DNA from: Acholeplasma laidlawii PG-8A
GTDB taxonomy: Bacteria > Bacillota_I > Bacilli_A > Acholeplasmatales > Acholeplasmataceae
Length of the DNA: 32,000 bases
Direction: 5' to 3'
NCBI RefSeq assembly: GCF_000018785.1
Contig: NC_010163.1
Coordinates: 750,001 to 782,000, forward strand
Shown here: positions 558 to 26,082 of the stretch, piece after piece
Numbering within the stretch: the stretch's first letter is position 1
Layout of the letters: the number at the start of each line of letters is the position of its first letter
Notes under the pieces: generated by a model
What the model was told of the DNA's origin: nothing
What the model saw: the letters and a program-made list of their open reading frames with translations, nothing else
Databases searched by the model: none
Made by a program: the position numbers and the translations under genes

Positions 558-3500
558 TTAACCTAAATATGCATCTATATGACTATATTTTAGATTTCTA
601 ATATCATCAGCATGTTCACCCAGAATACTATCGCCTTGAATTTTAATACGCTCATTTTGATTGGATAGTGTGTAATGTGTTACATTTAAGTTAAATGTGT
701 CAACATGATGTGGGTTATGGATAGTAATCGTGATATGAGAAAGGAATTTAAAGGATAACCTACCTTCTTTAAAGAAATCCTTTATAACTTTTGGATTCAC
801 TTTAAAAGTTAATTTATTTTCTTTATAACTAAAAGGTTGTTTACCTAGAAACATTAAATACATTAAAGTCATAGCTTCTGATGTCGTACCTGTGAGTCTG
901 GCAACAAAACCCTGACCATGTACTTTTGGATTTGGATTGTTGGATGTAGCAATAAAACTTACATTTTCTAAAGTACTTCTACCATAAACTAAAGGATCCA
1001 TAAAAGGTGGCATACTTGTTTTAATATCTTTGTAAAACTCATCATAAAGACCTGATTTAAACATGCCTATTAAATATTTATAACTCATATGTACAAAAGA
1101 AGACTCACGTTCAAGCCAGCCTTTTGTAAAAGCACGTGCTCGACCAATTTCTAAAGTCTCATCCTCTAAAGATGCAGATGTTTTATATACACCTAAAGTT
1201 TCATCATAAATACCTGATGCTTTTACATGTTGATGTACACTATGAGCATCTATTACATTGAGCATTGATTTTAGATAGTGCGCGGGTGCTTCTAAATAAT
1301 GAGGTAGTGGTCTAACCTTCCAGTTCGTCACATCAATACACTCTAAATTCAAATGAGGATGTCTTAAACCATTTTTTTGATAAGTGGTAGCTTCAAATGT
1401 TAAATAAGTAGGAATTAATCCTTTACCTAGTTCAAATGCATTTTTAATACCCCTATGAATATAGTCATTTAATCGTTCAATCAATGGGATTAATTGGGCT
1501 ATTGTAATATCCACAAATGCATCAGACAGATAGAGGTTTGTTTTTGCATCAAAACTTTCTCTAATGTCTTGTATCTTATCAAATCCATCATCAATATGAT
1601 GAGTTAAGTTCGTAAAAAAATCATATATATCTGATTGAATAGATACAGTTTTAGATTTAAATAGATGACTAAACTCAATTAAGTATTTAAATAATCGAGC
1701 TAAATTTATAGTTTCAGTCGTACCTGATCCAAAAATGGCAGGTAAACCGTTCATTGCATCATTCCAACCAGGTTTTTCGCTATCCATCATTACACCCATA
1801 CCCATTGGGTCTAAACTTGCTGTTTTGATCGTTGCTAAATGTAATAATTTTGAATATAAATTGACTGATACAGTTTTACCGTTTGTAAATTTATGAAAGT
1901 TTGAACCTTGTTTTAAATCTAAAGATTTTACTTTTTCTTTATCTTCATAAAGTCCACCTAATTGACGTGGAAAACCTTCTTTGTTAAGAACATACTTATA
2001 TTTTCTTGGATAAACACTCATTTTTGACTGATAGAATTTAATAGGTTGGTCAAAAAGCATAAAATCTATTTTATCAGGAAAAATTGCTAGATATTGTTCA
2101 ATTAAATCTAGATTATAAATCCAGTGATCTGACCAATAACCTGTTCCAAAGCTACTTTGAGTCGTTTGATCAGTATAATACATGATTAAGTCTAATAATG
2201 TTTGAGGTGAAATGTTAGTTTCTATATTGTTTTCAATAAACATCAATAAAGAGCCTGGAGTAAAAGGCTTTTTAAGATAATCTATGAGTTTATTCTCACC
2301 CTTAACAACATGTTCTAATAATTTATTTTGATACTTTTGATTAAACGTAAATCTTGAGCCTTCAATGGTCAATGGATTGTGTCCATCTAGTTGAATTAAT
2401 TCTAAAAACTGTACTATATTAAAAATACCAGCTTCTTTTACAAAATACACATCATTTCTTCTATTTTGATTTACATCTCTATAACTACCATTACCATGAG
2501 AGTAATATCTTGGTTCTATATAAAAATTATTGTATTCTCTTTCCATATCACCGTGAATTCTAGAATATGTATGGTAAACATGATCTTTATTTAACCCCTT
2601 AAATATATATGGAAAACCACCTCTTAGTAAATTATCTAAGAACGATTGTTTCATATATTGATCAAATAAAGGATAATTCGTCTGTGTATCCATAGGAGCA
2701 ACGAGTTCTTCAATAAATGATTCACTTAACGCTTCAAGTGACTCAAAATAATTAAAATCCCAATGACGTGCAGATTCATTCAATGAATCTAAATTGCTAT
2801 AAGACCCTAGTAATGTATAAAATGTATAAGTTTCATCTTTTCTTAAATGAACCTCATGTGTTGAAAATCCGGAAAGTAGCTGGTTTGTTGATGCTTGATT
2901 TTGACGTATAAACTCATCATATGGCATCTGATTAAATACATGTGGTACTGCAAGTTCATTTTGGTATCCAAAGATGATAGATGAGTCATAAATTGGTTTT
3001 AATCGCTTATGATGTTGGTCCACACTTACATAGAAATTACCTGCTTCTAATGCACTAATTTCTTCTGTATCTTCCGTTGTAGAGCGATTTTTCATAAATG
3101 GAATGTGGTTTTCTTGATTAAATACATCAAACCATGCTACAGCTAAATTTGACATGTTTTTTTGTGCATATAAACCAGTTCCATAGGGCCAGAATGTTGC
3201 TAACCCATCGATGAAGCTTAACTTCATATCTTTAAGTGCTTTAAACTGAACTTTCCTTACTAATCCAGGATACTTTTTCTCAGTTACGTGAAAGTATTTA
3301 ACAGTAGTTTGAACATCATTGTTCGTTTCTTCAATAGATACTTTATTTCTTCCAATGAATAATTTTCTATTGCTATCTGTTGTACCAAAGGGTTCAAAAC
3401 ATTGATCATTAACCTTTAAAAAAGTCCTAAAACCATTTACTGAAGTATTTCTATAACTTAAATTTGCAGGTGTGAAATCTAATATAGCGTGGTCTTTATT

Positions 3501-3662
3501 CTCAATACCAAAAGATGCAATTAATTGACCTCTATTGACATAATAAGTCCACATAGGTACGCCATTTTTACCTGCAATACCTGGTAAAAATGAAGCAAAA
3601 GGTTTTAACTTATGATAGTTTTCAAATATAAATTCTTTTGTTTCCTCATTAAAATATGTCAT
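558..3662 (-). CDS. Large cytoplasmic GH94-clan (GH94/GH149/GH161-like) glycoside phosphorylase-like protein; candidate beta-1,3-oligoglucan phosphorylase
   Basis: The ORF track gives 558..3671, but codon 1 there is TTG. The ATG at 3662 (MTYFNEE...) lies 1 nt after the upstream TAA, so I prefer it. There is no signal peptide. The N-terminus YFNEETKEFIFENY...FLPGIAGKNGVPMWTYYVNRGQ, the internal SYRDVNQN and PGWNDAMNGL motifs, and the C-terminal KLTFKVNPKV parallel the RDxxQD, ADWND and C-terminal-domain motifs of GH94 enzymes and of the 830-aa paralog in this window. Exact family and substrate are not determined. Confidence 0.55.
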   Translation of the reverse strand: MTYFNEETKEFIFENYHKLKPFASFLPGIAGKNGVPMWTYYVNRGQLIASFGIENKDHAILDFTPANLSYRNTSVNGFRTFLKVNDQCFEPFGTTDSNRKLFIGRNKVSIEETNNDVQTTVKYFHVTEKKYPGLVRKVQFKALKDMKLSFIDGLATFWPYGTGLYAQKNMSNLAVAWFDVFNQENHIPFMKNRSTTEDTEEISALEAGNFYVSVDQHHKRLKPIYDSSIIFGYQNELAVPHVFNQMPYDEFIRQNQASTNQLLSGFSTHEVHLRKDETYTFYTLLGSYSNLDSLNESARHWDFNYFESLEALSESFIEELVAPMDTQTNYPLFDQYMKQSFLDNLLRGGFPYIFKGLNKDHVYHTYSRIHGDMEREYNNFYIEPRYYSHGNGSYRDVNQNRRNDVYFVKEAGIFNIVQFLELIQLDGHNPLTIEGSRFTFNQKYQNKLLEHVVKGENKLIDYLKKPFTPGSLLMFIENNIETNISPQTLLDLIMYYTDQTTQSSFGTGYWSDHWIYNLDLIEQYLAIFPDKIDFMLFDQPIKFYQSKMSVYPRKYKYVLNKEGFPRQLGGLYEDKEKVKSLDLKQGSNFHKFTNGKTVSVNLYSKLLHLATIKTASLDPMGMGVMMDSEKPGWNDAMNGLPAIFGSGTTETINLARLFKYLIEFSHLFKSKTVSIQSDIYDFFTNLTHHIDDGFDKIQDIRESFDAKTNLYLSDAFVDITIAQLIPLIERLNDYIHRGIKNAFELGKGLIPTYLTFEATTYQKNGLRHPHLNLECIDVTNWKVRPLPHYLEAPAHYLKSMLNVIDAHSVHQHVKASGIYDETLGVYKTSASLEDETLEIGRARAFTKGWLERESSFVHMSYKYLIGMFKSGLYDEFYKDIKTSMPPFMDPLVYGRSTLENVSFIATSNNPNPKVHGQGFVARLTGTTSEAMTLMYLMFLGKQPFSYKENKLTFKVNPKVIKDFFKEGRLSFKFLSHITITIHNPHHVDTFNLNVTHYTLSNQNERIKIQGDSILGEHADDIRNLKYSHIDAYLG

Positions 3663-3663
3663 A

Positions 3664-4557
3664 TTAATCAATTTCCCTTACTAAATTTTGAATTGTTGGT
3701 GATTGATACACTCTAACAAAATCAATTTCCATTTTGGCATAGCTCAATTCAGGATCTATACCTTGAGCTGCACCCCAATCACCACCTATTGCGATATTTA
3801 ATAATAGATGAAAACGTCGATCAAATGGCCAGTGTCTGTTTTTTGGTATATCAACCAAATTAAAAGGATTATAAGTATAATACACTTCGTTATCAATTGA
3901 AAAAATTATCAAATCTGGAAACCATTCAACTGTATAGGTATGAAAAGCTTCACTTGCAGTTGGAATCACTTTAGAACCACCTTTTTGAGTGCCTATTTTG
4001 TGATTATATGCTTGGGTATGGATACTCGCATGAATACGGTTTTGGTCATAACCTACGTGTTCCATGATATCTATTTCACCACTATTTGGCCAACTACCAT
4101 ACTGCCAATCAGTAGGTAACATCCATATTGCAGGCCACGTTCCGCGACCTGTTGGAAGTTTAGCTCTCACTTCAATCTTACCCCACTTCCAATCACCTTT
4201 ATTTCTGGTGACCATACGTGCTGATGTCCAACTTCCTTTTTCATCTTTTATCGCTTCTATGGTGAGTATGCCATCTTTAACAAAGGCGTTTTGATCACTT
4301 GTGTAATTTTGTAGTTCATTATTTCCCCATCCGTGTCCGCCTACATCATAACCCCATTTATCATCATCAGGTAAACCTTCATAATCAAACTCATCAGACC
4401 ACACCAAAGCATAATCAGTAATATTGTCTTTATCATAAGTATAACCTTCAATTTTAGAGCGTTCTACTACAATGGGTGGTTCATCTTCTCTTTTATCACA
4501 AGCAATTAGCAAGGATGTAAACAATAATACACATAATGCAATCACAGTTTTTTTCAT
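3664..4557 (-). CDS. GH16 endo-beta-1,3(4)-glucanase (laminarinase-type), lipoprotein
   Basis: Carries the GH16 catalytic motif GEIDIMEH (E-x-D-x-x-E). The signal peptide has the lipobox LLIAC. The track start at 4566 is GTG; the ATG at 4557 (MKKTVIALC...) has an AGGTGA SD 5 nt upstream and sits 1 nt after the permease stop. Confidence 0.9.
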   Translation of the reverse strand: MKKTVIALCVLLFTSLLIACDKREDEPPIVVERSKIEGYTYDKDNITDYALVWSDEFDYEGLPDDDKWGYDVGGHGWGNNELQNYTSDQNAFVKDGILTIEAIKDEKGSWTSARMVTRNKGDWKWGKIEVRAKLPTGRGTWPAIWMLPTDWQYGSWPNSGEIDIMEHVGYDQNRIHASIHTQAYNHKIGTQKGGSKVIPTASEAFHTYTVEWFPDLIIFSIDNEVYYTYNPFNLVDIPKNRHWPFDRRFHLLLNIAIGGDWGAAQGIDPELSYAKMEIDFVRVYQSPTIQNLVREID

Positions 4558-4558
4558 G

Positions 4559-5686
4559 TTATTCACCTGTCATTCCGGTACGTTCAATACCTGCAATAAA
4601 TTGCTTTTGTGCAACTATATAAATAATAAATAAAGGTAAGATAGACAAGAATGTTGCTGCAGATTTATAACCTTCGTTAATTAAACCGATACCAACATCA
4701 CCTGGTGCACTATTTGCTTGATCTGCAAATATTGAATCAAATAGACTTAATCTCATGACTACAAGCGGATTACCAGATTGATAATAAATAGTTGCTGTAT
4801 AGATATCATTCCAATTCCAAATAAATGAAAATAGAAATACGATTAAAATAATTGGGACAACTAACTTAACATAAATATGCCAAAATACTTGGAATGAAGA
4901 TGCTCCATCAATTCGTGCTGCTTCATCTAATGTAATTGGAATCATTTTAAAGAAATTATAGAAAATTAATATAAGAATAGCTGAGTTGATACCTTGGCCA
5001 AAAAATGAAAATAGTACTTGAGGAATTAGTGTGGAAAATAACGCTCTACTGAAAAATGAACCTAAGAAATTATTAGCAAATAAAGCATCATAAATAGGAA
5101 TCCAAATATTTTCTTGTATACCGCTTATAATCATAATTCTAGGTACTGTGACCATTGGTAGTGGAATAATGAAGGACACTAATAACATCACAAAGAAGAA
5201 TTTCTTAAACTTAAAATTATATCGTGCAAAAGCAAAGCCTGTAAATGCAGCAATAACTGTTTGAATTAGTGCAAGTGTAGTCATGTTAAATAAGCTTTTA
5301 ATCAAGTTACCTGGATTTGTAAATGTACCTAAAAAACGATCGATAAAACTTAAACCTGGTGCAAACCAAGAAGGTGGTAGTAACTGTAGTACATGATTAG
5401 AAACAACAAAGTTACTAAAAGTTAATCCAGTTGGAATCCATGAAACCTCAGGACTTAATAAGTCCTTTCTCGTCATAAATGAGAGTAAAATCATACGAAT
5501 AATTGGAAATAAAAATACATAACTAATACCAATTAATAATACATAGATGACAAGTTTACCGATAACACCACCACTAGCTTTATGCCCAAATAAGTATTTT
5601 CGTATTTTACTTATAGAAATGTGTGAGGTGACTTTTTTAAATAGTAATTTAATTTTACCAAATAGGTCATTCATATATTTAATCAT
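4559..5686 (-). CDS. Carbohydrate ABC transporter permease (pair 1, second subunit), unusually long
   Basis: Polytopic membrane protein with the EAA loop LDEAARIDGASSFQVFWHIY. Its start overlaps the upstream stop (ATGA at 5683-5686). At 375 aa it is longer than typical MalG-like permeases of about 280 aa. Confidence 0.85.
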   Translation of the reverse strand: MIKYMNDLFGKIKLLFKKVTSHISISKIRKYLFGHKASGGVIGKLVIYVLLIGISYVFLFPIIRMILLSFMTRKDLLSPEVSWIPTGLTFSNFVVSNHVLQLLPPSWFAPGLSFIDRFLGTFTNPGNLIKSLFNMTTLALIQTVIAAFTGFAFARYNFKFKKFFFVMLLVSFIIPLPMVTVPRIMIISGIQENIWIPIYDALFANNFLGSFFSRALFSTLIPQVLFSFFGQGINSAILILIFYNFFKMIPITLDEAARIDGASSFQVFWHIYVKLVVPIILIVFLFSFIWNWNDIYTATIYYQSGNPLVVMRLSLFDSIFADQANSAPGDVGIGLINEGYKSAATFLSILPLFIIYIVAQKQFIAGIERTGMTGE

Positions 5687-6690
5687 GACATGTCACCTTT
5701 ATCTTTCTTCTTCTTAAATACACGATCAAACCATTCTTTAAGTGTTTCTTCATCTCTTAATTTCTTCAATTGAACACGATTGATACGTGCGATATGTTTG
5801 AGTTGTTTTTCCTTTAATGTATCTAGATATTTTGTGTCATCTTTAGTTCTTAGAACTAAGAATATAACACCAACAAATGCAAGTACTATCGCAGAATAAA
5901 CAATAACAACTGCAGCAGCAAATCCTAAACCATTCGTATAGTTGGAGTTGATAGTACCGACGACAAATGAGTAAATCGGATTCACTTCAAAGATTGCTAT
6001 TTGTACCACAGTATAAATACCTACAACAAGTCCAGTAGATCTTAAATTTGGTAGCATAATCTTCCATAGCATTTGCCATGAATTAGCACCATCGATTTGT
6101 GCTGCTTCATATAAACTATTATCAATTTTTTGTAAACCATTTAAAAATAATATAATTGGTATCCCTGTAAACCAAAGTATTAATGTAAAATTATCAAAAA
6201 TCGACATTAAAATGTTACTAAAGAAAGGCGAAATATTGTCGATCATCCTAAATATGAGTAATTCTGATATATCCATGAGTTGCATGGTATTAGAACTTCT
6301 TAATTGTGTCATAACAGGTCCACTAATAACAACTACAGGGAAGAAAAATATTAATCTGAAACCCGTTCTAAATTTAATTTTACTATTAAGTAGTATTGCT
6401 AGGATTAAAGATATAACTAAAATCATAGGCACATAAGTAATTTCCATAGAAATAAAGCCTACAACTAACTGGTTAAACTCAGTATTTCTAAAAAATGCTG
6501 TTACATAATTTTCAGTTCCAATAAATGAATATGTCCAACCATAGACGTCTTTAGATACTAAATTAAAACTTAACCAGATTGTATTGATGAATGGATAGAT
6601 AATGAAAAATATCAATCCTATCAACCAAGGAAGTAAAAATAAGTATGCTACATTTTCATTTTTCGGTTTTCTAACCCTTAATTTTGACAT
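5683..6690 (-). CDS. Carbohydrate ABC transporter permease (pair 1, first subunit) with a charged C-terminal tail
   Basis: Has the EAA loop LYEAAQIDGANSWQMLWKIMLP and multiple TM segments, with an AGGAGG SD upstream of the ATG at 6690. About 54 aa of Lys/Glu-rich tail follow the last TM. Confidence 0.85.
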   Translation of the reverse strand: MSKLRVRKPKNENVAYLFLLPWLIGLIFFIIYPFINTIWLSFNLVSKDVYGWTYSFIGTENYVTAFFRNTEFNQLVVGFISMEITYVPMILVISLILAILLNSKIKFRTGFRLIFFFPVVVISGPVMTQLRSSNTMQLMDISELLIFRMIDNISPFFSNILMSIFDNFTLILWFTGIPIILFLNGLQKIDNSLYEAAQIDGANSWQMLWKIMLPNLRSTGLVVGIYTVVQIAIFEVNPIYSFVVGTINSNYTNGLGFAAAVVIVYSAIVLAFVGVIFLVLRTKDDTKYLDTLKEKQLKHIARINRVQLKKLRDEETLKEWFDRVFKKKKDKGDMS

Positions 6691-6702
6691 ACAAATCCTC
6701 CT

Positions 6703-9225
6703 TTAAATAACAAGCTTATAGTTAAGCTTTTCAACGGTTATACCTTTATAGATTACAGTATCTTCTGTGTAGTTAATTACAACTTCATAGCCGTTTGCAT
6801 AGGTATTTACAATAACACCTGGTTGTAGTACGCTTCTACCTACCCACACCTCATTCATCACACTTGCGAGTGCACTGTTGACATCATTATAGATATCTTT
6901 TATCATCTCTTCATATAATGTAAATTCAGTAGAATAATAGTTAGATGAATGTGTTGCAATTAATTTATAGGCAGGATCGTGTGTTAATACAAATGATGGG
7001 AATGTATTGTAGTCTATCATTCTTAATACATCTTTTTGTTGGTAGAATGAGAAGTTTGAATAGGTCGCATAATTCTCCATAGCACCATTCAATACCAATT
7101 GTAAGAATGGTACAGTATCAGTTTCAACAAGGTGTTGAGAACTAAATAGGGGTGTACTTAAATGTCTATCAACGTATGGCCATAAATACATATTAGGCAT
7201 GATGGCATTAATCTTTGTTGATGCATCAATCTTAGTAAAAGTATCTTCATAAAGTTTTATTGTATCTGTAACAGTAGTAATATTTTCATTACTTCTATAA
7301 TGGCTATACAAGAGGTTTGAAATGCCATCATAAGTATAACTTTCAAAGCCCATTTTAGAGGTCTTATTATAAGTATTTAAGACCCATGATGATGCTCTAT
7401 TAGGTGTAGCATAATACTGCTTTTCTACCGGGCCAGTTGTTCTTCTATAGTTATATTCACTATACCAACCTCCGATATGTTTCATCGCATTATCTATTAA
7501 GAACATATTTTCAGAGTAAATTGTTGTATAGTCTTGATGTAAGGATACATCGATACCAAGTTCATTTAGATACTTAACTGTTTGAGTAAATTTAGATTTA
7601 CTACCTATTGAATCACTCCAATTAGGGCTTGATTTTCGACCGAGAGTTACACCACCTTTTTGGTAACCGAGTAACCCTGAATTAATATTATAGACACCTT
7701 CATTTTGTAATGTTTCTAAAATCTTTTTTACTTCATCAATTGTTGTAACAACAACATCTTCTGTTCCGATTAATGCATTTTTTGCATCACTCATTAAGAA
7801 GTCAATTCTCATTGGAATATTTATAAACTGTTCATTTTTATAACTTAATACGCCTGATTCATGTAAATAATCACGATATTTAATTGCCATACCGACATAA
7901 TCTGCGCGATAAGGGTTATCTAGAGTTGTACCATCTCCTGCAAGCATATAAAAATGTTGATGGATGTCAAAGTGATTTCTTTCCTCAAATAAGGACTGAT
8001 AGCTTGCTCCAGACTGATTATAAACTTGAGTATAGACTCGATTATATAGATATCTTGAATGTGCAATCATATAATCAGTTAAGTTATAGGCATCACTTGA
8101 GTTAGATGGTCTAGCATATATTTGCATATACTCATCACCACTACTAGTGTGTGATAAAAATGCTGCTTGAGTTCCATCGCCATAAGAGATACCAAATACT
8201 GGCATAGATGGATCTTTATGAGGTATAAAATTGGGTTCTGTGCGGCTATGTGATGGTAATTGTGCAATATCTTGTCCATATACATGACCAGTATAACCAT
8301 TTAATGAGGATTGGTAATCTGTAAAACGGATTAATGCGCCACTTCCATCTGGAACGAATATGTAGCCTTCATTTCTAGGTTTATTGACTACCGTGTCCCA
8401 CTTTACTTCTTTTTCTGTTATTGTGCCTTCTTCGGATTCAAAGGTTTCAGTATGTACACTTGGTAAAGAAATCTTACCACCGTAAGAACCCATAAAAGGT
8501 GCGATGGAGATTGATCCAATTAAATCTGTGTCATCTCCCTCAATTTCGCTATCTCTAATTTCAATAGAAAATCCATCTAAAGTTAAATGTAGATGTACCT
8601 TAACCTCTACATCAATGGCTTTAAATTTAAAATCAAGTCTAAAATGGTTAGGATCGTTGTTTACATTCTTTAAAACGTCCGTATTCACAGAATTAGATAC
8701 ACGTTCTTGAACTGTTTCTATTTCAGGATTGTTTAAATCTGGTGCAATAATGAAGTTCTTTGTACTACTTCCTGTTTGTGTTAAAGGACGATTTGGACTT
8801 AAGCGATTGAGATATTCAATCATGATTAAAGAGTTTGCAATACCTTCTCTAGAGTTGTTCATTTGTTCCTCTAAAGGTTTTGCAATAGCTAATATGTCTT
8901 CATCTGATGCACCTGGATTATTTTTAATAAATAATTCTACAGTACTTTCAATGTAACCATCATAGTCATGATCAATACCACTTTTCCAAGTAAAACCGTT
9001 TCTTTTATCATAGACAGCAAATATACCATTATGTTTTTTATAATAGTATTCAAAGTTGGCATTTTCTTGAATGAGTGTAAAGCCATCCTTATTTAGTGGT
9101 ACGATTACGACTTCATCAGGTGGCATTTTAGTATCTTTACTAGATTCAATATATACCGCATTCACCGTGAAACCAAGTAATATAACGATACAGATTACTA
9201 GAATAGTTCTTTTAATTGAAAACAT
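6703..9225 (-). CDS. 840-aa membrane-anchored extracytoplasmic protein of unknown function (I suspect a DUF5696-type family; unverified)
   Basis: Has a single N-terminal TM (ILVICIVILLGFTVNAVYI) and then about 810 aa that are predicted to lie outside. I see no catalytic signature I can name. A GGAG SD lies upstream, and the start overlaps the upstream stop by 14 nt. The family assignment comes from memory of similar gene neighbourhoods, not from a search. Confidence 0.6.
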   Translation of the reverse strand: MFSIKRTILVICIVILLGFTVNAVYIESSKDTKMPPDEVVIVPLNKDGFTLIQENANFEYYYKKHNGIFAVYDKRNGFTWKSGIDHDYDGYIESTVELFIKNNPGASDEDILAIAKPLEEQMNNSREGIANSLIMIEYLNRLSPNRPLTQTGSSTKNFIIAPDLNNPEIETVQERVSNSVNTDVLKNVNNDPNHFRLDFKFKAIDVEVKVHLHLTLDGFSIEIRDSEIEGDDTDLIGSISIAPFMGSYGGKISLPSVHTETFESEEGTITEKEVKWDTVVNKPRNEGYIFVPDGSGALIRFTDYQSSLNGYTGHVYGQDIAQLPSHSRTEPNFIPHKDPSMPVFGISYGDGTQAAFLSHTSSGDEYMQIYARPSNSSDAYNLTDYMIAHSRYLYNRVYTQVYNQSGASYQSLFEERNHFDIHQHFYMLAGDGTTLDNPYRADYVGMAIKYRDYLHESGVLSYKNEQFINIPMRIDFLMSDAKNALIGTEDVVVTTIDEVKKILETLQNEGVYNINSGLLGYQKGGVTLGRKSSPNWSDSIGSKSKFTQTVKYLNELGIDVSLHQDYTTIYSENMFLIDNAMKHIGGWYSEYNYRRTTGPVEKQYYATPNRASSWVLNTYNKTSKMGFESYTYDGISNLLYSHYRSNENITTVTDTIKLYEDTFTKIDASTKINAIMPNMYLWPYVDRHLSTPLFSSQHLVETDTVPFLQLVLNGAMENYATYSNFSFYQQKDVLRMIDYNTFPSFVLTHDPAYKLIATHSSNYYSTEFTLYEEMIKDIYNDVNSALASVMNEVWVGRSVLQPGVIVNTYANGYEVVINYTEDTVIYKGITVEKLNYKLVI

Positions 9226-11254
9226 TTCTAATCAACTCCTTAATAATTGCATCTAAGAATAGATAGAGTTGTTGCCACATGGTGATGATGATGATTAAGA
9301 CAACAACAATGATAATTGCAAACAGTAAACTCATAAATATACTTCGTATGGTTTCCTTACCAGAATATTCATGTATTTCACTAATGCCTAGATAAATTAA
9401 TATGAACGACCAAATGGTGCCAAAAGTCATTATAAAATCTAAGAAAAAGACTTCATTATATGTAAGTACGTGTGATAGTAGTGTAACGAGTAATAAAGCT
9501 AAGAATAAAGGTCCTAGAGCATATACAAACATCATAAAGATCTGTTTAAGTTTACCGATACCATCATTAATTGATGTATCTAAATAATTACAGATTACAA
9601 ACAATAAGGTTACTGCTGTAAACCCTAAAACAAGTGCAGTGATATCAATATCTTCTACTAATATGTATTGATAGATGAACCCTTTAGATGTATTAAAGAA
9701 AATAAAGGTGATAAAGATAGCTACATATAAAATGAGTGTGGCTCTAAAAGAACCTTGATGTCCATGTTTTAAGTCTTCAAAACTATCGATTGGTTTTCTC
9801 ATGACTTTAAACATGAAACTTAATTCTCTTAAGATAGGTTTATCAAATGATTTTTTAATCGGTTGTGTGAATTGAGTTACTTTACCTGTTTTTTTATCTA
9901 CTTTATGTAATACTAAATTACTAAAGTAAATAAAGATAAGTGCAATAATAAATATACCTAAATAACTTTGTATCACAAGATTTCTAACTTCCCAGGATGC
10001 TTCTGAATAACCTGTACGATTACCTGCAAGTTCAAAATGATGCATTGCAGATTCATAATCCTGTAACTGTAGATAAGATTTTGCAATGTTATTATGAGCA
10101 ATCACAGACATTTGATTTAAATTAAGTACTTCGCTCCATGCATCAATAGCTTCTTGGTATAATCTGTCTTCATATAGATTAATAGCTCTATATATTTCTT
10201 TTGCATATGCGGTTGGTTCAAAGGATTGTAGAAATGATTTTGCATCATCTAAGGCAAATATAACACCATCATCTCGTACTGCAATCGAAGAAAGTCTTTG
10301 GAAGACACCAGAGATATCTTGATTTGAGGAGATATCAGAGTTACTTGCACCAAAATAGAAAATAAAATCACCGGTTTGATCATATACAAATATAGCACCT
10401 GATTGCATACCGGCATATACGATACCTTCTTTGTCAACATAAATATCTCTTGCATCATCAAAAGATATCATACGTTTGAAAATATTACCGCCTTGTGTGT
10501 TATGTTTTTTAACAGCATTGAAATAAGTACTCATCGTTGTAGTATAAACCATCGAGTTATCGTCGATAAATATGCTTGAGAATGTTTGTGGACTTCTCGC
10601 AAGTAAATTATCAAACTGTTCTGGTGTTAGTATGAGTTTTTGAAATTGTTGAACGACTGAAAGTCTGATTTTATTTGTTGTGAAAAATCCTAAGAATTCA
10701 CCAATGTTAGATAATTGGATAATACCGTTTGAAACACCTTCACCATAGATATATAAATTTCCGCGATTATCCACTGCGATTTTACTTGGTTCAAAACTCG
10801 TTTCACCAAATGATAAGGAATCCGGACGTTCAAATTTTTCAATAAAAGTACCATCAAGATCAAATCTAAAAACTGCTTTAGCTGCACTATCTGCAACATA
10901 TAATCCACGACTGGAAATATATAAACCTTTAGGTGCTAAAAATTCAGGATAGGTCAGTTCGAATAATAACTCATTTGTTACTGAGTCATATTTTAAAATA
11001 CGCATATTTCCAGTATCGGCTATCCATAAAAACCCATCATCATCAAACATCATATCTTCTGGTTTGTTTAAATTTAATTCCATTGTAGTTCTTAGTGGTA
11101 AATACGCATCTTGAGTTCTTACAAACTCGCCCTTCGCATTTAAAGTCAACGTATAACTTGTAGCTGCTGATGCAAATACTGGTGTGGCGTATATGACTAT
11201 GAATGCAACTATGAATAGTAAAATTGTAATTATTCTTTTAGTATTTTTCATCAT
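9212..11254 (-). CDS. Signal peptide - NHL-type beta-propeller - TPR - TM - Yip1-like 5-TM domain fusion protein
   Basis: Signal peptide ending VFASAAT. Repeated blade motifs are present (DGFLWIADTGNMRILKYD, RGLYVADSAAKAVFRFD, RGNLYIYGEGVSNGIIQL, EGIVYAGMQSGAIFVYD, DGVIFALDDAKSFLQSF). A TPR-like segment (YQEAIDAWSEVLNLN...AKSYLQLQDYESAMHHFELAG) follows. Then come one TM, a basic linker and five further TM helices in a Yip1-like arrangement. Confidence 0.7.
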   Translation of the reverse strand: MMKNTKRIITILLFIVAFIVIYATPVFASAATSYTLTLNAKGEFVRTQDAYLPLRTTMELNLNKPEDMMFDDDGFLWIADTGNMRILKYDSVTNELLFELTYPEFLAPKGLYISSRGLYVADSAAKAVFRFDLDGTFIEKFERPDSLSFGETSFEPSKIAVDNRGNLYIYGEGVSNGIIQLSNIGEFLGFFTTNKIRLSVVQQFQKLILTPEQFDNLLARSPQTFSSIFIDDNSMVYTTTMSTYFNAVKKHNTQGGNIFKRMISFDDARDIYVDKEGIVYAGMQSGAIFVYDQTGDFIFYFGASNSDISSNQDISGVFQRLSSIAVRDDGVIFALDDAKSFLQSFEPTAYAKEIYRAINLYEDRLYQEAIDAWSEVLNLNQMSVIAHNNIAKSYLQLQDYESAMHHFELAGNRTGYSEASWEVRNLVIQSYLGIFIIALIFIYFSNLVLHKVDKKTGKVTQFTQPIKKSFDKPILRELSFMFKVMRKPIDSFEDLKHGHQGSFRATLILYVAIFITFIFFNTSKGFIYQYILVEDIDITALVLGFTAVTLLFVICNYLDTSINDGIGKLKQIFMMFVYALGPLFLALLLVTLLSHVLTYNEVFFLDFIMTFGTIWSFILIYLGISEIHEYSGKETIRSIFMSLLFAIIIVVVLIIIITMWQQLYLFLDAIIKELIRNVFN

Positions 11255-11259
11255 ATCAC

Positions 11260-12135
11260 CTACTTAATCCCTGCATGAGCCATAGTGTTCATAACCCTAG
11301 ACTGCATAATGATAAAAATAATTAAATTCGGTAAGAACATTATTAATCCGGCAGCTGCAGCCATACCAACACCTGCTAGTGCAGAACCTGTGTTTGCCAG
11401 TGCTAACGTATTTAAATAAAATGCAAAGGACTTCATAGATTCATCCTGAATGTATAAATTAGATGCTTCAACTGCTCCCCATGTAGCTTGAAAGGTTAAA
11501 ATAGCTACTGTCGCAATCGCATTTTTAGTGAGTGGATAGATTATTTTAAATAGGATCTGAAAGTCATTTGCCCCATCGATTCTTGCAGCTTCAATTAATG
11601 CATCTGGAACTTGATCAATAAACTGTTTCATTAAAAATACATTCACTGGTACTGCTAAATAAGGCAGTATATGAACAAGTGGATTATTATTCAAACCAAC
11701 TTGAACAATAATAAAATAAGTTGGAATCACAACTGCTGTTCTAACAAACATTAGGGCAGTTTGATTTAAACCAAATAACGCCTTTTTAGCTCTGAAGTGT
11801 TTCTTTGATAGCACATAGCCTGTCATGACACTTAAAAATATTGTTAAAAATACAAGAATGATTGTTACTACCAGTGTATTAAATAAGTATCGGATTAAAG
11901 GAACCCCGGTAGATGTAGCTGTTCTAAAGAGTTCAGTAAAATTTCCGAAAGTAGGATTTTGAACAAAGAATCTTGGAGGAAATAAGAATAATTCATCTAA
12001 AGGTTTAAATGCTTGATTAATTATAAATAGTACAGGAAGTAACATAAATATAGCCATCGGAAGCAAGATTAGATAAAAAGGGATTTGTGATTTAGAAAAA
12101 CTCGTTGGATTTATTTTAGTTCCTTGAAAACTCAT
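11260..12135 (-). CDS. Carbohydrate ABC transporter permease (pair 2, MalG-like)
   Basis: EAA loop LIEAARIDGANDFQILFKIIYP, six predicted TM segments, and an AGGAGGGGTGA SD upstream. Confidence 0.9.
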   Translation of the reverse strand: MSFQGTKINPTSFSKSQIPFYLILLPMAIFMLLPVLFIINQAFKPLDELFLFPPRFFVQNPTFGNFTELFRTATSTGVPLIRYLFNTLVVTIILVFLTIFLSVMTGYVLSKKHFRAKKALFGLNQTALMFVRTAVVIPTYFIIVQVGLNNNPLVHILPYLAVPVNVFLMKQFIDQVPDALIEAARIDGANDFQILFKIIYPLTKNAIATVAILTFQATWGAVEASNLYIQDESMKSFAFYLNTLALANTGSALAGVGMAAAAGLIMFLPNLIIFIIMQSRVMNTMAHAGIK

Positions 12136-12150
12136 ATCATCACCCCTCCT

Positions 12151-13080
12151 TTAATCTTTTTCCGCAAATAAGCGGTATGCTATTTTAGAAAATACCCATA
12201 TTAGTAAAAGTAAAACTACTGATAATGCCGCAGCATAGCCCATTTCATAGCGAATAAATCCAAAATCATCAATATGGTTTGTGATTAGCTGTGCTGCATT
12301 TTGAGGTGTTGGATTAGATCCAGATAATGCAACGCCAATATATCCGTTTGTGAAAGTTGCCACGATCGCCATAACAGCTCCGAATAACATTTGAGGTTTC
12401 ATCATTGGTATTGTTACATAGACAACTTCTTGAAATTTATTACGAATCCCTTCAATATAAGCTGCCTCATAAAGTTCTTCATTCCCATTTAATATACCAG
12501 CCAACATTGCTAAAAACCCTACACCCATACTACTCCATAGAGCAACTACGATAATAATTGGCATTAAATATTGTGGTGATTGTAGAAACTGTATCGGTCG
12601 GTCCAATATATTCATATCCATCAAAATAGCATTAATATAACCGGATTCATCACCTGAAAAAAGTGTACGCCAAACAACTGAAATAAATACTCCACCTACC
12701 ATGGAAGGTGAATAAACTGCCAGTGCAATGATCGTTCTTGGTACTACTTGTATTTGTGCGAGCATCCATGCAAGTAGGAAAGATAGCATGTAGCCACCTG
12801 GTCCAACAATTAGTGAAAACATTAATGTATTTGGTAAAATATATTTTAAAAATACTGGGTCTTGTGTAAATATATTAATGAAATTTGTTAATCCCAAGTA
12901 TTGAGGCATTTCAATTACATTAAAGGATGTTAAAGATAGGTAAATTGCAATTGCTACAGGAAATGCTATAAATAAACTAAATAACAAGACATAGGGTAGT
13001 AACATGAAAAATACTGTGAGGCTATCTTTAAACTTTGCATTTTTGAAAAATACATTTTTACGCTTAATCGTTTGATCCAT
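12151..13080 (-). CDS. Carbohydrate ABC transporter permease (pair 2, MalF/LplB-like)
   Basis: EAA-like loop [23 protein letters not shown]. The track start is 13098, but the ATG at 13080 (MDQTIKRK...) is preceded by an AGGAGG SD at 6 nt spacing, so I prefer it. It overlaps the upstream stop (13064) by 17 nt. Confidence 0.85.
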
Positions 13081-16054
13081 GATAGCCTCCTGATGCATCT
13101 AACATTTGATTTCTAACCCATGTAATATCTCTAATTACATATGGTTTTATTAGGTTTCCTTCATTATCAAGAAAACCAAATTCAATCATTTTCTTTCGCA
13201 TTTCTCTGTTTATTAAAATGGTATATCTGTCTACAGCAATACCTGTAGGTGTTCCATCAAACACTGCTGTATTCCATATATCTGAAATCGATCTTTCTAA
13301 CATATATTGACCAGGTGTTCTCGGTACATCTATTAACCATTTAATTTGTTCTAAAATTACTTCTTTATCTTTTTCGGAAAAAGGTGATGCCATAAATGCA
13401 TTAATATTACCAGAAATCCATGCATAAGTAGGTCCATAAGTAGACTGTAAATTAAATGAAAATTGTGATTGAGTTTCAGTTGACATCCACCACTTTAAAA
13501 AATCCCATGCATCATCAGGTTGATCAGTTTCATTCATAATCATACCTGCTGTACCATTAGCAATATAGTGACGGTTCGTACCAGCTGCTTCAGTAGTTAT
13601 ACTAGGATAAGGTGCTATTTCCCACATCCCAGTTAATTCAGGTGCAGCATTTTTAATAAGTTGATAAGTTCCAAAGTCCGCGATTCCAATTGGTAGTGTT
13701 GCATATCTAAATGAATTATAAAATGAAACTACTTGCTCAGGTAAAGCATAGTTTGTAAATAATTGATTTAAGAAAGTTAAACCTTGAACGGCTTCTTTTT
13801 CATTAATACTTGTTCTTAAGCCATCTTCAGAGTAAATATTACCACCAAATTGATATATAAACCCAGAGGTTTGATAAAACCACTTAATTGCAGTTCCACC
13901 TGCAATTGGATGGTAGAAATTCATACCATACTTTTGTAATTCAGGTAGAATTTGAATCACTTCTTCCCATGTATCTGGTACCATAAAATTTAAAGCATCA
14001 AATATATCTTTTCTATACATGACAACATTAAAGTCCAAAGTTTCAGGTAATGCATAAGCTTTATCATTTAAAATATAAGGAACAAATGCGCCTGGTGCAA
14101 ATTGTGATGCGAATTCCCAATAATCATCAAAACTGGTTAAGTCATACGCTGAATTTCTAATTGCTAAGTCAAAAGGCATATAACTTGCTAGTCCTAGTGC
14201 AACATCCGGCTGTTGATTTGCAGCAGATGCCATAACAAGTTTATTTGCATCAGGCATTACTGAAATCTTAACTTGAATACCAGTTTGAGGTGTAAATGTT
14301 TGATCTGCCATCTTTTGCATCATATCTACATAAGTTATGGGTCTGTTTACCCAAACATCTAAAACACCATCTTCTTTAGTTAAGGCATATTTATTCGAAC
14401 TAAAACTTGCGATAAATGATTGTGTTCCAGCATAAAGTGATTCAAAAATATTCGGATTTGCCTTTCTCAATCGCGTGTTATTATATAAATGCAATTGATT
14501 CAAATACATTTGTTGATTATTTAGTGTATCTAAAATATCACCTAAAAATTGATTAATAGAGCCAGTTCCCCCAACAAGATCCTCTAAATATAATGGCAAT
14601 CTATTGTAATCTTTATAGATGTTTTCTGCTCTTGATAATGATTTTTGAAGGTTACTAATTGTTGCTGATTTTGCACCATTTGGTGCAAACAAACTGAGTT
14701 CATCAATACTAGCCTTTAGAAGTAAGATATAACTTTCCAAATATGCCTTAGATTCAGGCATTTGTTCACTAAATCTCCAAGTTCTATTCTTATCAACTTC
14801 TTTACCTGTAATTTTTCTGATTTCCAAAGTAAATGTATTGATATGATCTATAAGCATTTGTATGTTTCTAACAGCTTCTTGAACGGGTTCGCTTTCCGCT
14901 CTTAAAGTAATTGTATTTTTACCTGATTGGAAATAAAAATAGTAATCTGTTTGTTCATTGCCCAATGTTTCTACGCGCCAATTGCCTGCTTTTGTAGATT
15001 TAAACTGGTATGCTCTTACTTCATTAAACGGAATCTGTCCATTAATTTTAATAGATCTAAAAACAGGAAAATCAGCTTTAGGATTAGAATATCTAAATGC
15101 CAGTTTATAAAGGCCTGATTTTTCTACGTTGACTTCATAGGTTAAAGATTGACCTGGACGTTGCCAAGTTCTTCCGTCAATTACATTTAACTTTTTATAA
15201 ACTGGGTCAAAAGGTAAAACACTAGGATTTACCTCACTGTATGCTTGTACATAACTTGAGTTTTTATAACTATAATTGGTTGCATCTATATCAATAATTC
15301 CATCAATAATCTCATAGTTGTTTTGGTTAATATATGTATCGTAGTCGATTTGTAAAACAGGTTTAAATACATCAATATCTCCTATTATAAATTTAGAGGA
15401 GGATGTATTTTCAATGGTTAGTTGATTTAAACCTTGTTTAAAATAAAATAAGAGTGGATCAATAGAAATATAGGTATTATTATATGCAGCTACATACTGC
15501 CAATCATCCATAATTATTTGATTTGGCAACACTTCATCACCATAGCGATCTGTCAGATAATTTTTTGACTCATCTTGCCAAATGATAGGTAGTTCGATAG
15601 TCTGCATTTCTTGATAATAACTTTCATCATTAATTTTTAGTGCAATAGTAATTTGATTCAGTGTAGCATTCGATACTTTATAGTTCATACCTACATGATA
15701 ATAACCAGCTTCTTGTATTTCTATTTCGTAAGTAGCTATTTTATCTTTTGTCATTATCAAACTATATTGCATATTCTCTGAATCTATTAATGCATCAGAG
15801 TTTGTTAAACTTGCTGTAATTGTACTTAAGCCATAATCAACATTTTGTTGATGATCGCTTAAATAATCGACATACGTATATCTTGCATTATTAATGGATG
15901 CATTTAATAGTGTTTTTGTTTCTGAAACTAAATCATTTGTTATAGTTCCATCTGGCTTATAAATTGAAGTACCTCTTGTAAAGTAAATGATAGCAAAAAC
16001 TAATAAAACAGTCGCTAAACCCCAAACAATAGATCGTTTAATTTTACCCATCAT
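13064..16054 (-). CDS. Membrane-anchored tandem CBM-like / helical linker / solute-binding-protein fusion (996 aa)
   Basis: N-terminal TM ([17 protein letters not shown]). Two internally repeated beta-sandwich-like modules follow: aa ~95-230 ([21 protein letters not shown]...[14 protein letters not shown]) and aa ~250-390 ([21 protein letters not shown]...[17 protein letters not shown]). A helical stretch of about 170 aa comes next. From about aa 560 there is a family-1-type sugar SBP domain ([21 protein letters not shown]...). A GGGAGG SD lies upstream. Confidence 0.75.
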
Positions 16055-16083
16055 GATAAAAAACCTCCCTTTTTCATTATGAA

Positions 16084-16107
16084 GGCACCAAACAATTGTC
16101 TAGTGCC
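16084..16107 (-). promoter_or_regulatory. Intercistronic RNA stem-loop between the SBP gene and the downstream transporter genes
   Basis: The minus-strand RNA GGCACUAGACAAUUGUUUGGUGCC folds into a 10-bp stem (8 Watson-Crick pairs plus 2 G-U) with an AAUU loop. On the plus strand the two G-U pairs become C-A mismatches, so the structure is specific to the transcribed strand. There is no U-tract, so it is not a strong terminator. Confidence 0.5.
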
Positions 16108-16133
16108 AACATAATAAAGATTACTAAAATTTA

Positions 16134-17765
16134 TTATTTAAAATCAGCGTCTGTCTTGCCGTAATGTGTTTTAAGTCCGGCTTTCAACTTAGCCCATTCA
16201 TCAGCAAATCTTTGGTTTACCTGTGTATTCCATTCAGGCAACTTAGCTAATACAGCATTTGTAAATCCAGCATCTGTACGACGTGGAGAAGTAGCTTCAG
16301 GGTTACCAGTTAAGACGGTTGGTAAGTTAAAGTTATTCCATTCATATAGAATTTCAGATCTTACACCATCTTTATCGTAATACCAAGGGTAAGCTTTATC
16401 AGAGACGTCAATAACTTTACCTGATGAGAATACTTCCATCATATAGTGGAAACCAGGGAATTGTTCTTTATCTGCAAGCATTGTATGATTTTCTGCAGAG
16501 AACCAAATATCCATTTGACGTTCAAATGCAGCACCAGTTACTAGAGGTACAGAGTCATTCATAGCAGTTTTAACTGTAGCACCATTTGTATACATTTGGT
16601 CAGCTCTTGCTTGCCATGCACGGTCATCACCAATCCAGAATGATGCAAATGTATAAGCAATTTGTAATTTATTAAATTCTTCATCAGATAATTCTGAATT
16701 ATTATCATCTAAAGCATAATTATGAATTGCAAGTGGGTCAAGTACTACACCTACTGTATTATCAACGTAATCTGTACTAGGTCTTGGATAAATATCCCAA
16801 TTGTTTGATTGAACAGCACCCCAATGTAATGGATCAGGGTTTGCAGCATCACCTAACATCCAAGGATCTCCATCAAGTGTTAATAATGCACCATTTTTAA
16901 AGAAGTTGAAACTCCACCAACCATTAGCATCCATAAATGGAGCCATTGGGTCGCCTACTTTATCAAATTGTGGCCATACTGAGTGTTCTGACCATTCAGC
17001 GATATAAGGAATTAATGATCTAACTTGTGCAGAATTAAGATCAATATATGGATCATTTCCAGTATGATTAACAAGTGATTGTGCCATTGTAGTTGATCCT
17101 GTGAATATAAAACTCTTTGGAGTATCCATAGAACCATACCAAGAATTAGCTACAGAATGGCTAACAAAGTCTGTATATTCATCAATTGTCCAATCTGGAT
17201 CAGGAATATCAATATTGTTATCATCTGCTAATTGCTTATTGATATATACGCCCCAAGGTTGTAAGAATTGTGGTAAACCAGCTTGAACTCCATAGTAATT
17301 CATCATGCTCATAATACCTTTATTAAATGATTTATACATAGGGTCATCACTAAATACAGATAAGTCTGATACCATACCACGTTGAACTTCACCAGGTAAA
17401 TCTGTTGATGCCCATATATCAATTGTTTTACCATGTTCTAAAATGAAGTTTTCTCTAAACTGAGACCAACTCACACCATCATCATGTGGACCATTGACTT
17501 TAGTGATAACATTGATCTTAACATTTGGATAATCTTTGTTAAACTCTTTAGCTACTGCATAAATAGTTGCAGCATTTTGAGAGACTAACTGATCAGGTGT
17601 TAGATTTTTCTTACCGATATCTTGGTAGAATTCTCCGTCTCCTGACCACAACATAATTGTAATTTCACCACTAGCCGCTTTATCTAATCCTTTATAACTA
17701 GGACCACAAGCTACTAATAGTAATACTACCATTGCAAGTAAACTTGAAACAAAAATCTTTTTCAT
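16134..17765 (-). CDS. Extracellular sugar-binding lipoprotein (ABC transporter SBP, long ~540-aa class)
   Basis: Signal peptide with the lipobox LLLVAC. The composition is aromatic- and Trp-rich, as in SBPs. It is the first gene after a promoter, with an AGGAGGA SD at 17771-17777. Confidence 0.85.
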   Translation of the reverse strand: MKKIFVSSLLAMVVLLLVACGPSYKGLDKAASGEITIMLWSGDGEFYQDIGKKNLTPDQLVSQNAATIYAVAKEFNKDYPNVKINVITKVNGPHDDGVSWSQFRENFILEHGKTIDIWASTDLPGEVQRGMVSDLSVFSDDPMYKSFNKGIMSMMNYYGVQAGLPQFLQPWGVYINKQLADDNNIDIPDPDWTIDEYTDFVSHSVANSWYGSMDTPKSFIFTGSTTMAQSLVNHTGNDPYIDLNSAQVRSLIPYIAEWSEHSVWPQFDKVGDPMAPFMDANGWWSFNFFKNGALLTLDGDPWMLGDAANPDPLHWGAVQSNNWDIYPRPSTDYVDNTVGVVLDPLAIHNYALDDNNSELSDEEFNKLQIAYTFASFWIGDDRAWQARADQMYTNGATVKTAMNDSVPLVTGAAFERQMDIWFSAENHTMLADKEQFPGFHYMMEVFSSGKVIDVSDKAYPWYYDKDGVRSEILYEWNNFNLPTVLTGNPEATSPRRTDAGFTNAVLAKLPEWNTQVNQRFADEWAKLKAGLKTHYGKTDADFK

Positions 17766-26059: not shown

Positions 26060-26082
26060 GTCATATCTCCATATCAATAATT

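Follow-up and report, generated by a model that had tools for sequence, protein, structure and literature searches.

In a window of 32,000 nucleotides from Acholeplasma laidlawii PG-8A (NC_010163.1, positions 750,001 to 782,000; all coordinates below are those of the window), the gene at 6703..9225 encodes an 840-aa membrane-anchored protein of the DUF5696 family. We report that this protein is a distant member of the GH129/GH101 superfamily of glycoside hydrolases (GH) and not a new fold, and that DUF5696, as represented here, is a large, divergent, transporter-embedded clade of that superfamily. Comparison with its GH129 relatives shows the main DUF5696 clade to have dropped, as judged from the aligned positions, their canonical catalytic residues. 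We propose with moderate confidence that the protein is an accessory ectodomain subunit of a two-translocon ATP-binding cassette (ABC) importer for beta-glucans, and not a classical retaining glycosidase. The gene is already known as a DUF in its annotation and the locus has been published. In the literature searched we found no description of the link between DUF5696 and GH129, of the loss of the canonical catalytic residues, or of a role as invariant core component of an eight-gene, two-translocon beta-glucan importer; nor did we find there a paper on DUF5696, PF18952 or PF11308, or on Yip1 together with GH16 or laminarin. The features of the gene are as follows (DagB is the Zobellia enzyme discussed below).

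6703..9225, minus strand: DUF5696 gene, ATG start, 840 aa, membrane-anchored GH129/GH101-like ectoprotein (list of open reading frames (ORFs), Pfam, AlphaFold2 (AF2), Foldseek)
9148..9213, minus strand: N-terminal hydrophobic helix, residues 5-26 (hydropathy); signal anchor, or signal peptide with a possible cleavage site between VNA and VY
7936..9111, minus strand: beta-rich N-terminal region, residues 39-430, interrupted by an inserted helical segment, 89-130 (AF2 model, DSSP); aligns to the N-terminal beta-sandwich of DagB
8323..8364, minus strand: motif YIFVPDGSGALIRF, residues 288-301, the most conserved segment of the family, with G287, P292 and G296 invariant or nearly so
6856..7812, minus strand: (beta/alpha)8-like barrel, residues 472-790 (AF2 secondary structure, Foldseek, HHalign to the DagB barrel)
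7069..7116, minus strand: motif TVPFLQLVLNGAMENY, residues 704-719, with P706 near-invariant and D703 immediately N-terminal (conservation and DagB alignment)
6709..6846, minus strand: C-terminal beta-sandwich, residues 794-839 (AF2 model)

The protein matches the Pfam model PF18952 (DUF5696) with an E-value of 2e-150 and 502.7 bits (cut-off 25.6), over residues 187-836 and profile positions 3-612 of 612. This hidden Markov model (HMM) search bears out the DUF5696-type family that an earlier note, made from the letters of the stretch, had suggested. The protein is 100% identical to an A. laidlawii entry at NCBI named 'DUF5696 domain-containing protein'. One search returned 858 homologues at E<=1e-5, and at E<=1e-3 the homologues amount to 4,601 clusters of 50% identity. 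They are found in Firmicutes, Mollicutes and metagenomes from gut, termite and digester, and given these numbers we take the gene to be real, far beyond chance. Other sequence searches were negative. At E<=10, Pfam yielded DUF5696, one spurious match and nothing else on the 840-aa protein, the Glyco_hydro_129 and GH101 models giving no match even at this threshold. No NCBIfam model matches the protein, and searches of PDB chains by phmmer with the protein itself and by hmmsearch with a 44-sequence profile gave zero matches even at E<=10.

An AF2 model built on 44 homologues (pLDDT 85.6, pTM 0.86) contains a beta-rich N-terminal region, a linker helix, a barrel at residues 472-790 and a C-terminal beta-sandwich, so that the impression of a beta/alpha barrel gained by eye in the earlier note is confirmed. 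Comparison of this model with the PDB by Foldseek placed first ZgGH129/DagB of Zobellia galactanivorans (8rzk, 5opq), an alpha-1,3-(3,6-anhydro)-D-galactosidase of a 'GH129-like' clade, with an E-value of 7e-25 and a target-normalised TM-score (TMt) of 0.69. It was followed by NagBb, an alpha-N-acetylgalactosaminidase of GH129 (5wzn; E ~1e-19, TMt 0.70) and, at lower TMt, by the GH101 endo-alpha-N-acetylgalactosaminidases (2zxq, 5a59; E ~1e-14) and by the barrels of GH36, GH31, GH97 and GH13 (E 1e-9 to 1e-11), with a sequence identity of ~10-12% in these matches. The three-domain architecture of GH129 (N-terminal beta-sandwich, (beta/alpha)8 barrel, C-terminal beta-sandwich) is hence present in the model, with a TMt of 0.69-0.70 to 5opq, 8rzk and 5wzn. 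NagBb and the GH101 enzymes share with it a barrel that is GH13-like and partly broken, flanked by beta-domains (PMC8106489). They differ in having no sequence-level match to the DUF5696 protein; they are mucin enzymes specific for alpha-GalNAc, in which an Asp/Glu pair is conserved. The earlier note could match the protein to no named GH family and proposed a candidate new one; structure prediction and Foldseek lead instead to the GH129/GH101 superfamily, a relation that is remote but clear.

To compare the family with a characterised enzyme, we retrieved a DagB orthologue from a Zobellia genome, using as probe a primer that the supplement of PMC5698469 gives for the cloning of the gene. The recovered orthologue (Zobellia uliginosa, L006:5904-7988) is ~96% identical to PDB 5opq chain A and has the same residue numbering. 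It scores 40.2 bits on PF18952 (cut-off 25.6, E 2e-10), and NCBI labels the members of the DagB clade (P0266-P0385) 'DUF5696 domain-containing protein'. The characterised enzyme thus already counts as DUF5696. HHalign, run on DUF5696 and DagB alignments of 72 and 25 sequences respectively, gave a probability of 98.5% (local) to 99.6% (global), with E-values of 2e-15 to 4e-23 over ~600-640 columns. In it, YIFVPDGSGALIRF falls on DagB 188-SYIF-PMNGGRFCKW-200, a segment that holds the active-site residue C198 and leads into D202 (PMC5698469), TVPFLQLVLNGAMENY pairs with DagB PAPLFNLVYHEAIANF, and N724 adjoins the position of the substrate-contacting residue Q566 (PMC5698469). DagB is the best structural match, and the two groups have in common the layout of N-terminal beta-sandwich, barrel and C-terminal beta-sandwich (for DagB, PMC5698469) as well as the motifs YIF-P..G.. 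and.P.F.LV....A..N[FY]. On the other hand, identity between them is just ~12%, and DagB is a soluble, periplasmic, dimeric protein of a carrageenan locus in Bacteroidota, whereas the DUF5696 protein is membrane-anchored and encoded inside an ABC-transporter operon for beta-glucans. Furthermore, the DUF5696 protein has a gap where DagB has its dimer and active-site loop (342-357, with H347). Taken together, the fold match and the profile-profile match make the protein a distant member of the superfamily, related to GH129 at superfamily level and not at family level.

We then asked whether the catalytic residues had been conserved. In DagB, mutagenesis has shown D486, E517, E531 and D202 all to be required for activity, D202 being contributed by the other monomer of the dimer (PMC5698469). 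These four residues are invariant within the DagB clade, and it is D486 that carries the mutation in 8rzk, the entry of the Michaelis complex. In contrast, the DUF5696 clade has no conserved acids at the positions to which they map. Three alignments were compared for this mapping: one of a profile with a single sequence, one of two profiles and one made by hand. D486, the beta4 nucleophile, falls on S629, D633 or N637 according to the alignment used, E517 on a gap or on approximately M676-N678, E531 on P683 or L689, and D202 on D303, where the DUF5696 family has no conserved acid. For the nearby D686, acidic in 74%, the better counterpart is DagB D528, a residue that is not catalytic.

Conservation was scored on 213 non-redundant (<70% identity) full-length relatives aligned to the HMM. 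Position 629 is acidic in 3% of them, position 637 in 10% and position 633, an Asp in A. laidlawii, in 53%; among metagenomic loci with the same GH16 and GH161 context, position 633 is occupied by D, E, K, S, T, G, A, N, F or M. The Asp that serves as nucleophile at the end of beta4 in GH129 (DagB D486, NagBb D435) was hence not found as a conserved residue at 629, 633 or 637 among the 213 relatives, and no conserved acid was found at the mapped positions of the acid/base carboxylates (DagB E517, E531), N678 being Asn in 89%. With position 633 so variable between like loci, a beta4 nucleophile is not under selection, and this argues against the retaining mechanism common to GH129, GH101, GH31, GH36 and GH13. 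Because neither the nucleophile nor the acid/base of the enzymatic relatives is conserved, the DUF5696 protein is most likely not a classical retaining glycosidase. The earlier note had seen no recognisable catalytic signature, with which the mapped positions agree; the hydrolase or transglycosylase that it considered becomes unlikely in its conventional form. A reading in the style of clan GH-A, with the acid on beta4 and the nucleophile on beta7, was considered and rejected, as position 633 is unconstrained and E717 is acidic in 83% with free exchange of Asp and Glu.

A different set of residues is kept. D293 is Asp in 212 of the 213 relatives and Glu in the remaining one, N724 is Asn in 212 (one gap), and G296, G520 and P292 are conserved in 100%; P706 and P743 are each present in 212, with one gap each. 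Acidic residues occupy position 475 (D475) in 92% and position 703 (D703) in 94% of relatives, and Asp or Glu is found at D480 in 98% and at D738 in 100%. Since the segment from D293 to R300 aligns with the DagB segment of C198 and D202, and N724 lies beside Q566, the old active-site region seems to be kept as a functional surface. At positions 480, 717 and 738 Asp and Glu swap freely, an exchange that leans towards a binding or structural role.

The genomic context is the second line of evidence. We collected 80 metagenomic loci together with distant homologues retrieved singly (~85 in all), and used the proteins of the window as phmmer queries to annotate them. The search was seeded with alignment A1, because the broad alignment A2 was too divergent, and the 80 loci are biased to close, beta-1,3-type relatives as a result. 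In these loci, the DUF5696 gene sits in a module of eight genes, which in the window comprises, besides the DUF5696 gene itself, the following (SBP, substrate-binding protein).

16134..17765, minus strand: lipoprotein SBP, 543 aa, first gene of the eight-gene cassette (Pfam SBP_bac_1, lipobox LLVAC)
13064..16054, minus strand: giant SBP, 996 aa, anchored (Pfam SBP_bac_1, 6.5e-18; AF2 pLDDT 86.1)
11260..13098, minus strand: permease pair A (A1 and A2), 291 aa and 315 aa (ORFs, homologous loci)
9212..11254, minus strand: NHL beta-propeller, TPR and Yip1 membrane protein, 680 aa, obligate partner of DUF5696 in the genomes (Pfam Yip1 2.1e-14, NHL 1.1e-9, TPR; seven hydrophobic segments)
5683..6690, minus strand: permease B1, 335 aa (BPD_transp_1, EAA loop)
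4559..5686, minus strand: permease B2, 375 aa (BPD_transp_1, EAA loop)

In the window, the ORF exists exactly as the earlier note gave it, and every motif quoted there is found in the protein (IPMRIDFLMSD, for example, is residues 470-480). An AGGAG ribosome-binding site precedes its ATG, which lies within the 3' end of the Yip1 gene with an overlap of 14 nt, and permease gene B1 begins 12 nt past its stop codon, so that the gene is indeed tightly coupled to its Yip1 and permease neighbours. Hydropathy scans detect a single hydrophobic segment, at ~residues 5-26 and preceded by K5 and R6, and no second one; the AF2 model has a helix at residues 2-17, and conserved juxtamembrane residues (Y25, T32, P36) follow. 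With this single N-terminal helix, the bulk of the protein would be extracellular, carried by an N-in/C-out anchor or a signal peptide, in line with the cell-surface location already proposed.

The arrangement is strictly maintained. The Yip1 fusion lies directly upstream of DUF5696 in 61 of the 62 loci scored by script, the 62nd (L034) having Yip1 in its listing, and the two reading frames overlap in every locus, by 8-47 nt. Directly downstream there is a permease gene in 68/68 loci. The full order (SBP, giant SBP, A1, A2, Yip1, DUF5696, B1, B2) is found in 32 of the 35 loci with enough flank. The other three depart from it in trivial ways: in one B1 and B2 are fused, in another the Yip1 ORF is split, and in the third an SBP has diverged, though Pfam still detects it. 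This module (window 4559-17765; loci L001-L089) occurs in Mollicutes, Firmicutes and many metagenomes, flanked mostly by GH16, GH161, GH30, GH94 and GH3 enzymes. A distant subgroup of DUF5696 proteins (~740 aa, 25-30% identity) resides in the same cassette beside other enzymes. In three loci (L005, L087, L089) these are SOGP-type GH94, PF10091 and GH35-like genes; PF10091 is the family that we take to be GH144, and we read these as probable beta-1,2-glucan loci. In L088, the cassette adjoins two GH30 genes and a gene for a 1023-aa surface protein with CBM4_9 and Ig-like domains, which is likely a beta-1,6-glucan locus. In all loci seen the module is associated with beta-glucans alone, and the glycan context assumed in the earlier note is thus beta-glucan in every locus type found. 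The presence of the same cassette in beta-1,3-, beta-1,2- and beta-1,6-type loci suggests that it is a generic importer of non-cellulosic beta-glucans, of which DUF5696 would be a fixed part.

The A. laidlawii PG-8A locus has been published as a GH161 cluster beside a GH94 cluster (Kuhaudomlarp et al. 2019, PMC6484121). The account of the locus given there lists GH161, two permeases, GH16, GH3 and the GH94 laminaribiose phosphorylase, and remarks on a 'missing' SBP and on absent nucleotide-binding domains; in its passages on the cluster, the DUF5696 and Yip1 genes are not discussed. It is the same locus, treated in that account as two neighbouring clusters. Here the DUF5696 and Yip1 genes form the conserved centre of one eight-gene module, which looks like a single composite importer. 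Our results hence correct the published view of two separate clusters with a missing SBP.

From these observations we propose the following role. The DUF5696 protein is, by its predicted topology, a single-pass, membrane-anchored extracellular protein, translationally coupled to the NHL-TPR-Yip1 membrane protein and encoded between two permease pairs of MalFG type, within a module that would import non-cellulosic beta-glucan oligosaccharides, the probable substrate in the A. laidlawii window being beta-1,3/1,6-glucan. Its old active-site cleft would be retained as a surface for binding a ligand or a partner (D293, D480, N678, D703, E717, N724), and the protein would be an ancillary ectodomain subunit that captures or positions glucan chains, or that serves as a scaffold to keep the SBPs and the propeller of the Yip1 protein above the two translocons. 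That the protein forms a physical complex, binds glycan and lacks catalysis is in each case inferred.

There are precedents for both halves of this proposal. In Bacillus, the Yip1-family protein YknW is an accessory subunit that modulates the assembly of the ABC transporter YknWXYZ, so that a Yip1-family membrane protein is known to serve an ABC transporter (PMC4887032). YknWXYZ is, however, a MacB-type exporter, and YknW has neither an NHL/TPR ectodomain nor a DUF5696 partner. On the side of DUF5696, the amino-acid transporter subunits 4F2hc (SLC3A2) and rBAT (SLC3A1) carry GH13-like 'fake glucosidase' ectodomains (PMC8537225). They work in a like manner: each crosses the membrane once and exposes a bulky (beta/alpha)8 barrel of GH type with a C-terminal beta-sandwich outside the cell, its catalytic residues are lacking or not needed, and it acts as an ancillary subunit of a membrane transporter (PMC8537225). 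The DUF5696 protein shows the architecture of this functional class of SLC3-type pseudo-glycosidases, that is, a single-pass anchor, a predicted GH-like barrel and catalytic positions that are not conserved. The SLC3 proteins are eukaryotic, of GH13 ancestry and disulfide-linked to an SLC7 secondary transporter, whereas the association of DUF5696 with a transporter is deduced from gene linkage; the likeness is convergent in logic only, without specific homology.

Several observations weigh against our proposal. First, the local alignment around the catalytic residues varies among the three alignments, so that the mapped positions are ranges. Second, strict conservation of a pocket-like set of residues, polar and acidic, where the barrel strands end C-terminally is an enzyme-like pattern too. 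Third, this pocket is conserved across loci of different beta-linkages, which would argue against linkage-specific glycan binding. Finally, two aspartates, D633 and D703, stand 70 residues apart in the protein of A. laidlawii itself. This resembles the spacing of nucleophile and acid/base in GH31 and GH36, and it keeps a scenario of residual activity alive. As the mechanism of the family, a GH31/GH36-like pair of D633 and D703 was rejected, position 633 being unconstrained.

These points bring us to the strongest alternative, which we regard as possible and still rather doubtful: an enzyme active at the cell surface, a glycoside hydrolase or transglycosylase with displaced catalytic residues in a GH129-like fold, that processes beta-glucan ahead of the SBPs, for instance by trimming, debranching or re-sizing it. 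Catalytic residues are known to shift between strands in related families such as GH97. The candidates here would be D703 with E717, or D480, together with D293 from a loop of the N-terminal domain. Indeed, D293, D480, D475, D703 and E717 are acidic in 83-100% of relatives, N724 is near-invariant, and conserved residues stand at the C-terminal ends of nearly all barrel strands. The most conserved motif, YIFVPDGSGALIRF, aligns with the very DagB segment that supplies C198 and D202 of the active site, and some homologues (P0094) have an N-terminal CBM_4_9 domain, frequent in enzymes. Nevertheless, the structural relatives all act on alpha-linkages, whereas all locus types found are beta-glucan loci, and a single family serves loci of three linkages, each of which has its own endo-glucanase (GH16, GH144 or GH30). 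The free interchange of Asp and Glu at D480, E717 and D738 is unusual for catalytic carboxylates, and the canonical nucleophile position is unconstrained.

It is unlikely that the protein acts without contact to the imported glycan, either as a factor for the assembly, folding or stability of the Yip1 fusion or the transporter, or on some other substrate at the surface that is unrelated to it, for which the alpha-glucosyl glycolipids of the cell itself are an example. Acholeplasma lipids include alpha-linked glucolipids, which alpha-glycosidase ancestry would fit, the translational coupling to the Yip1 gene is universal (overlaps of 8-47 nt), and the pocket is conserved whatever the glucan linkage that the locus targets. 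Such a role agrees poorly with the strict association with beta-glucan loci and with the fusion of some homologues to a carbohydrate-binding module (CBM); moreover, no lipid or cell-wall gene is tied to the cassette in any locus examined.

The remaining alternative had been raised in the earlier note, which saw a permease pair with no SBP gene next to it and suggested a non-catalytic docking partner substituting for one. Literally, pair B has no adjacent SBP gene; the same operon has two of them upstream (16134..17765 and 13064..16054). The AF2 model of the 996-aa giant SBP (pLDDT 86.1) consists of a transmembrane helix, two CBM-like beta-sandwich domains (~79-230 and 252-387), a helical stalk (~389-512) and a MalE-like domain, whose best Foldseek match is the Listeria beta-1,2-glucooligosaccharide-binding protein 5ysb (TMt 0.81). 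The N-terminal half of this protein has no Pfam assignment. In the DUF5696 protein there is no SBP Pfam domain at E<=10, and its AF2 fold compared by Foldseek is GH-like and not the bilobal fold of an SBP, while its 996-aa and 543-aa neighbours do carry the SBP fold or domain. Type I ABC importers dock SBPs via this bilobal fold. Delivery of substrate to permease pair B by DUF5696 in place of an SBP is hence the least probable reading, in spite of its position directly upstream of pair B in 68/68 loci, of the missing SBP noted for the GH161 sub-cluster in the account of PMC6484121 and of a homologue (P0120) that bears the source name 'ABC-type transport system, substrate-binding component', since two SBPs always accompany the two permease pairs of the cassette, the giant one with a bona fide MalE-like domain, and DUF5696 need not stand in for one. 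Of the suggestion in the earlier note, the transporter partner is the part that we favour, as a proposal, and the substitution is superfluous.

The enzymes around the cassette bear on what it may import. Genes from 26077 down to 558 are all on the minus strand, and most overlap or almost abut. Those outside the module are the following.

22994-26077, minus strand: GH3, 1027 aa, permuted domain order (Pfam)
20496-22988, minus strand: GH94, of the laminaribiose phosphorylase cluster (Pfam and the account in PMC6484121)
20108-20506, minus strand: 132-aa ORF, overlapping the GH94 and cytoplasmic GH16 genes
19401-20111, minus strand: GH16, 236 aa, without signal peptide or hydrophobic segment (sequence and hydropathy)
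17939-19420, minus strand: GH30 lipoprotein (Pfam)
3664..4566, minus strand: GH16 lipoprotein, surface endo-beta-1,3-glucanase (Pfam GH16 5e-23, lipobox LLIAC)
558..3671, minus strand: GH161-type beta-1,3-glucan phosphorylase, 1037 aa, cytoplasmic (weak GH94-superfamily match; A. laidlawii GH161 gene in the account of PMC6484121)

In our scheme, the surface GH16 and GH30 would cut the glucan outside the cell, and GH161, GH94, GH3 and the GH16 at 19401-20111, apparently a cytoplasmic endo-beta-1,3-glucanase, would complete its breakdown inside. The phosphorylases of the locus act on oligomers with a degree of polymerization of 3 or more, according to the description in PMC6484121. Together with an endo-acting GH16 in the cytoplasm, this suggests that rather long glucan chains may be imported, and we speculate that the import of long chains could be the reason for so elaborate a machine.

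A bolder version of our proposal, which we advance only tentatively, is that there is a hitherto unrecognised class of ABC importer in which DUF5696 and the NHL-TPR-Yip1 protein are extracellular subunits, both of them obligate. This class would combine a pair of MalFG-type translocons with two SBPs, of which one is giant, anchored and equipped with CBM-like domains, and would take up long beta-glucan chains whole, as a 'selfish uptake' in single-membrane bacteria, with DUF5696 as the bacterial counterpart of 4F2hc/rBAT. Such an uptake would explain the cytoplasmic endo-GH16 and the long-chain phosphorylases.

DUF5696 thus becomes a testable hypothesis for the capture and import of laminarin-type glucans, a major marine and dietary carbon pool, by bacteria without an outer membrane. 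Our results also call for caution against the automatic naming of DUF5696 proteins as glycosidases, and they flag a likely annotation problem, as characterised GH129-like enzymes are named 'DUF5696'. As it stands, the PF18952 label covers a known glycosidase clade (DagB) together with members that probably have no nucleophile.

Some further features of the locus were recorded. No ABC ATPase gene was found in the 32-kb window. Scans for promoters and terminators gave sites fewer than, or no more than, those in shuffled sequence, and there is a hint of a possible promoter upstream of the first SBP gene. The 132-aa ORF at 20108-20506 gave no Pfam match at E<=0.001. In the GH3 protein, Glyco_hydro_3_C (37-270) comes first, followed by an Fn3-like domain (324-399), the GH3 N-terminal catalytic domain (522-779) and a C-terminal stretch of ~250 aa that has no assignment. 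Among homologues, variants of DUF5696 of ~950-967 aa carry an N-terminal extension, one of which (P0094) has the CBM_4_9 match. EAA loops are present in the translations of all four permeases of the window. In L002 (10001-15500), one 864-aa protein with permease domains takes the place of the two B permease genes. In A. laidlawii, permease B2 has an N-terminal extension of ~40 residues, and permease B1 ends in a highly charged tail of ~50 residues rich in Lys and Glu (residues ~285-335, ...KYLDTLKEKQLKHIARINRVQLKKLRDEETLKEWFDRVFKKKKDKGDMS).

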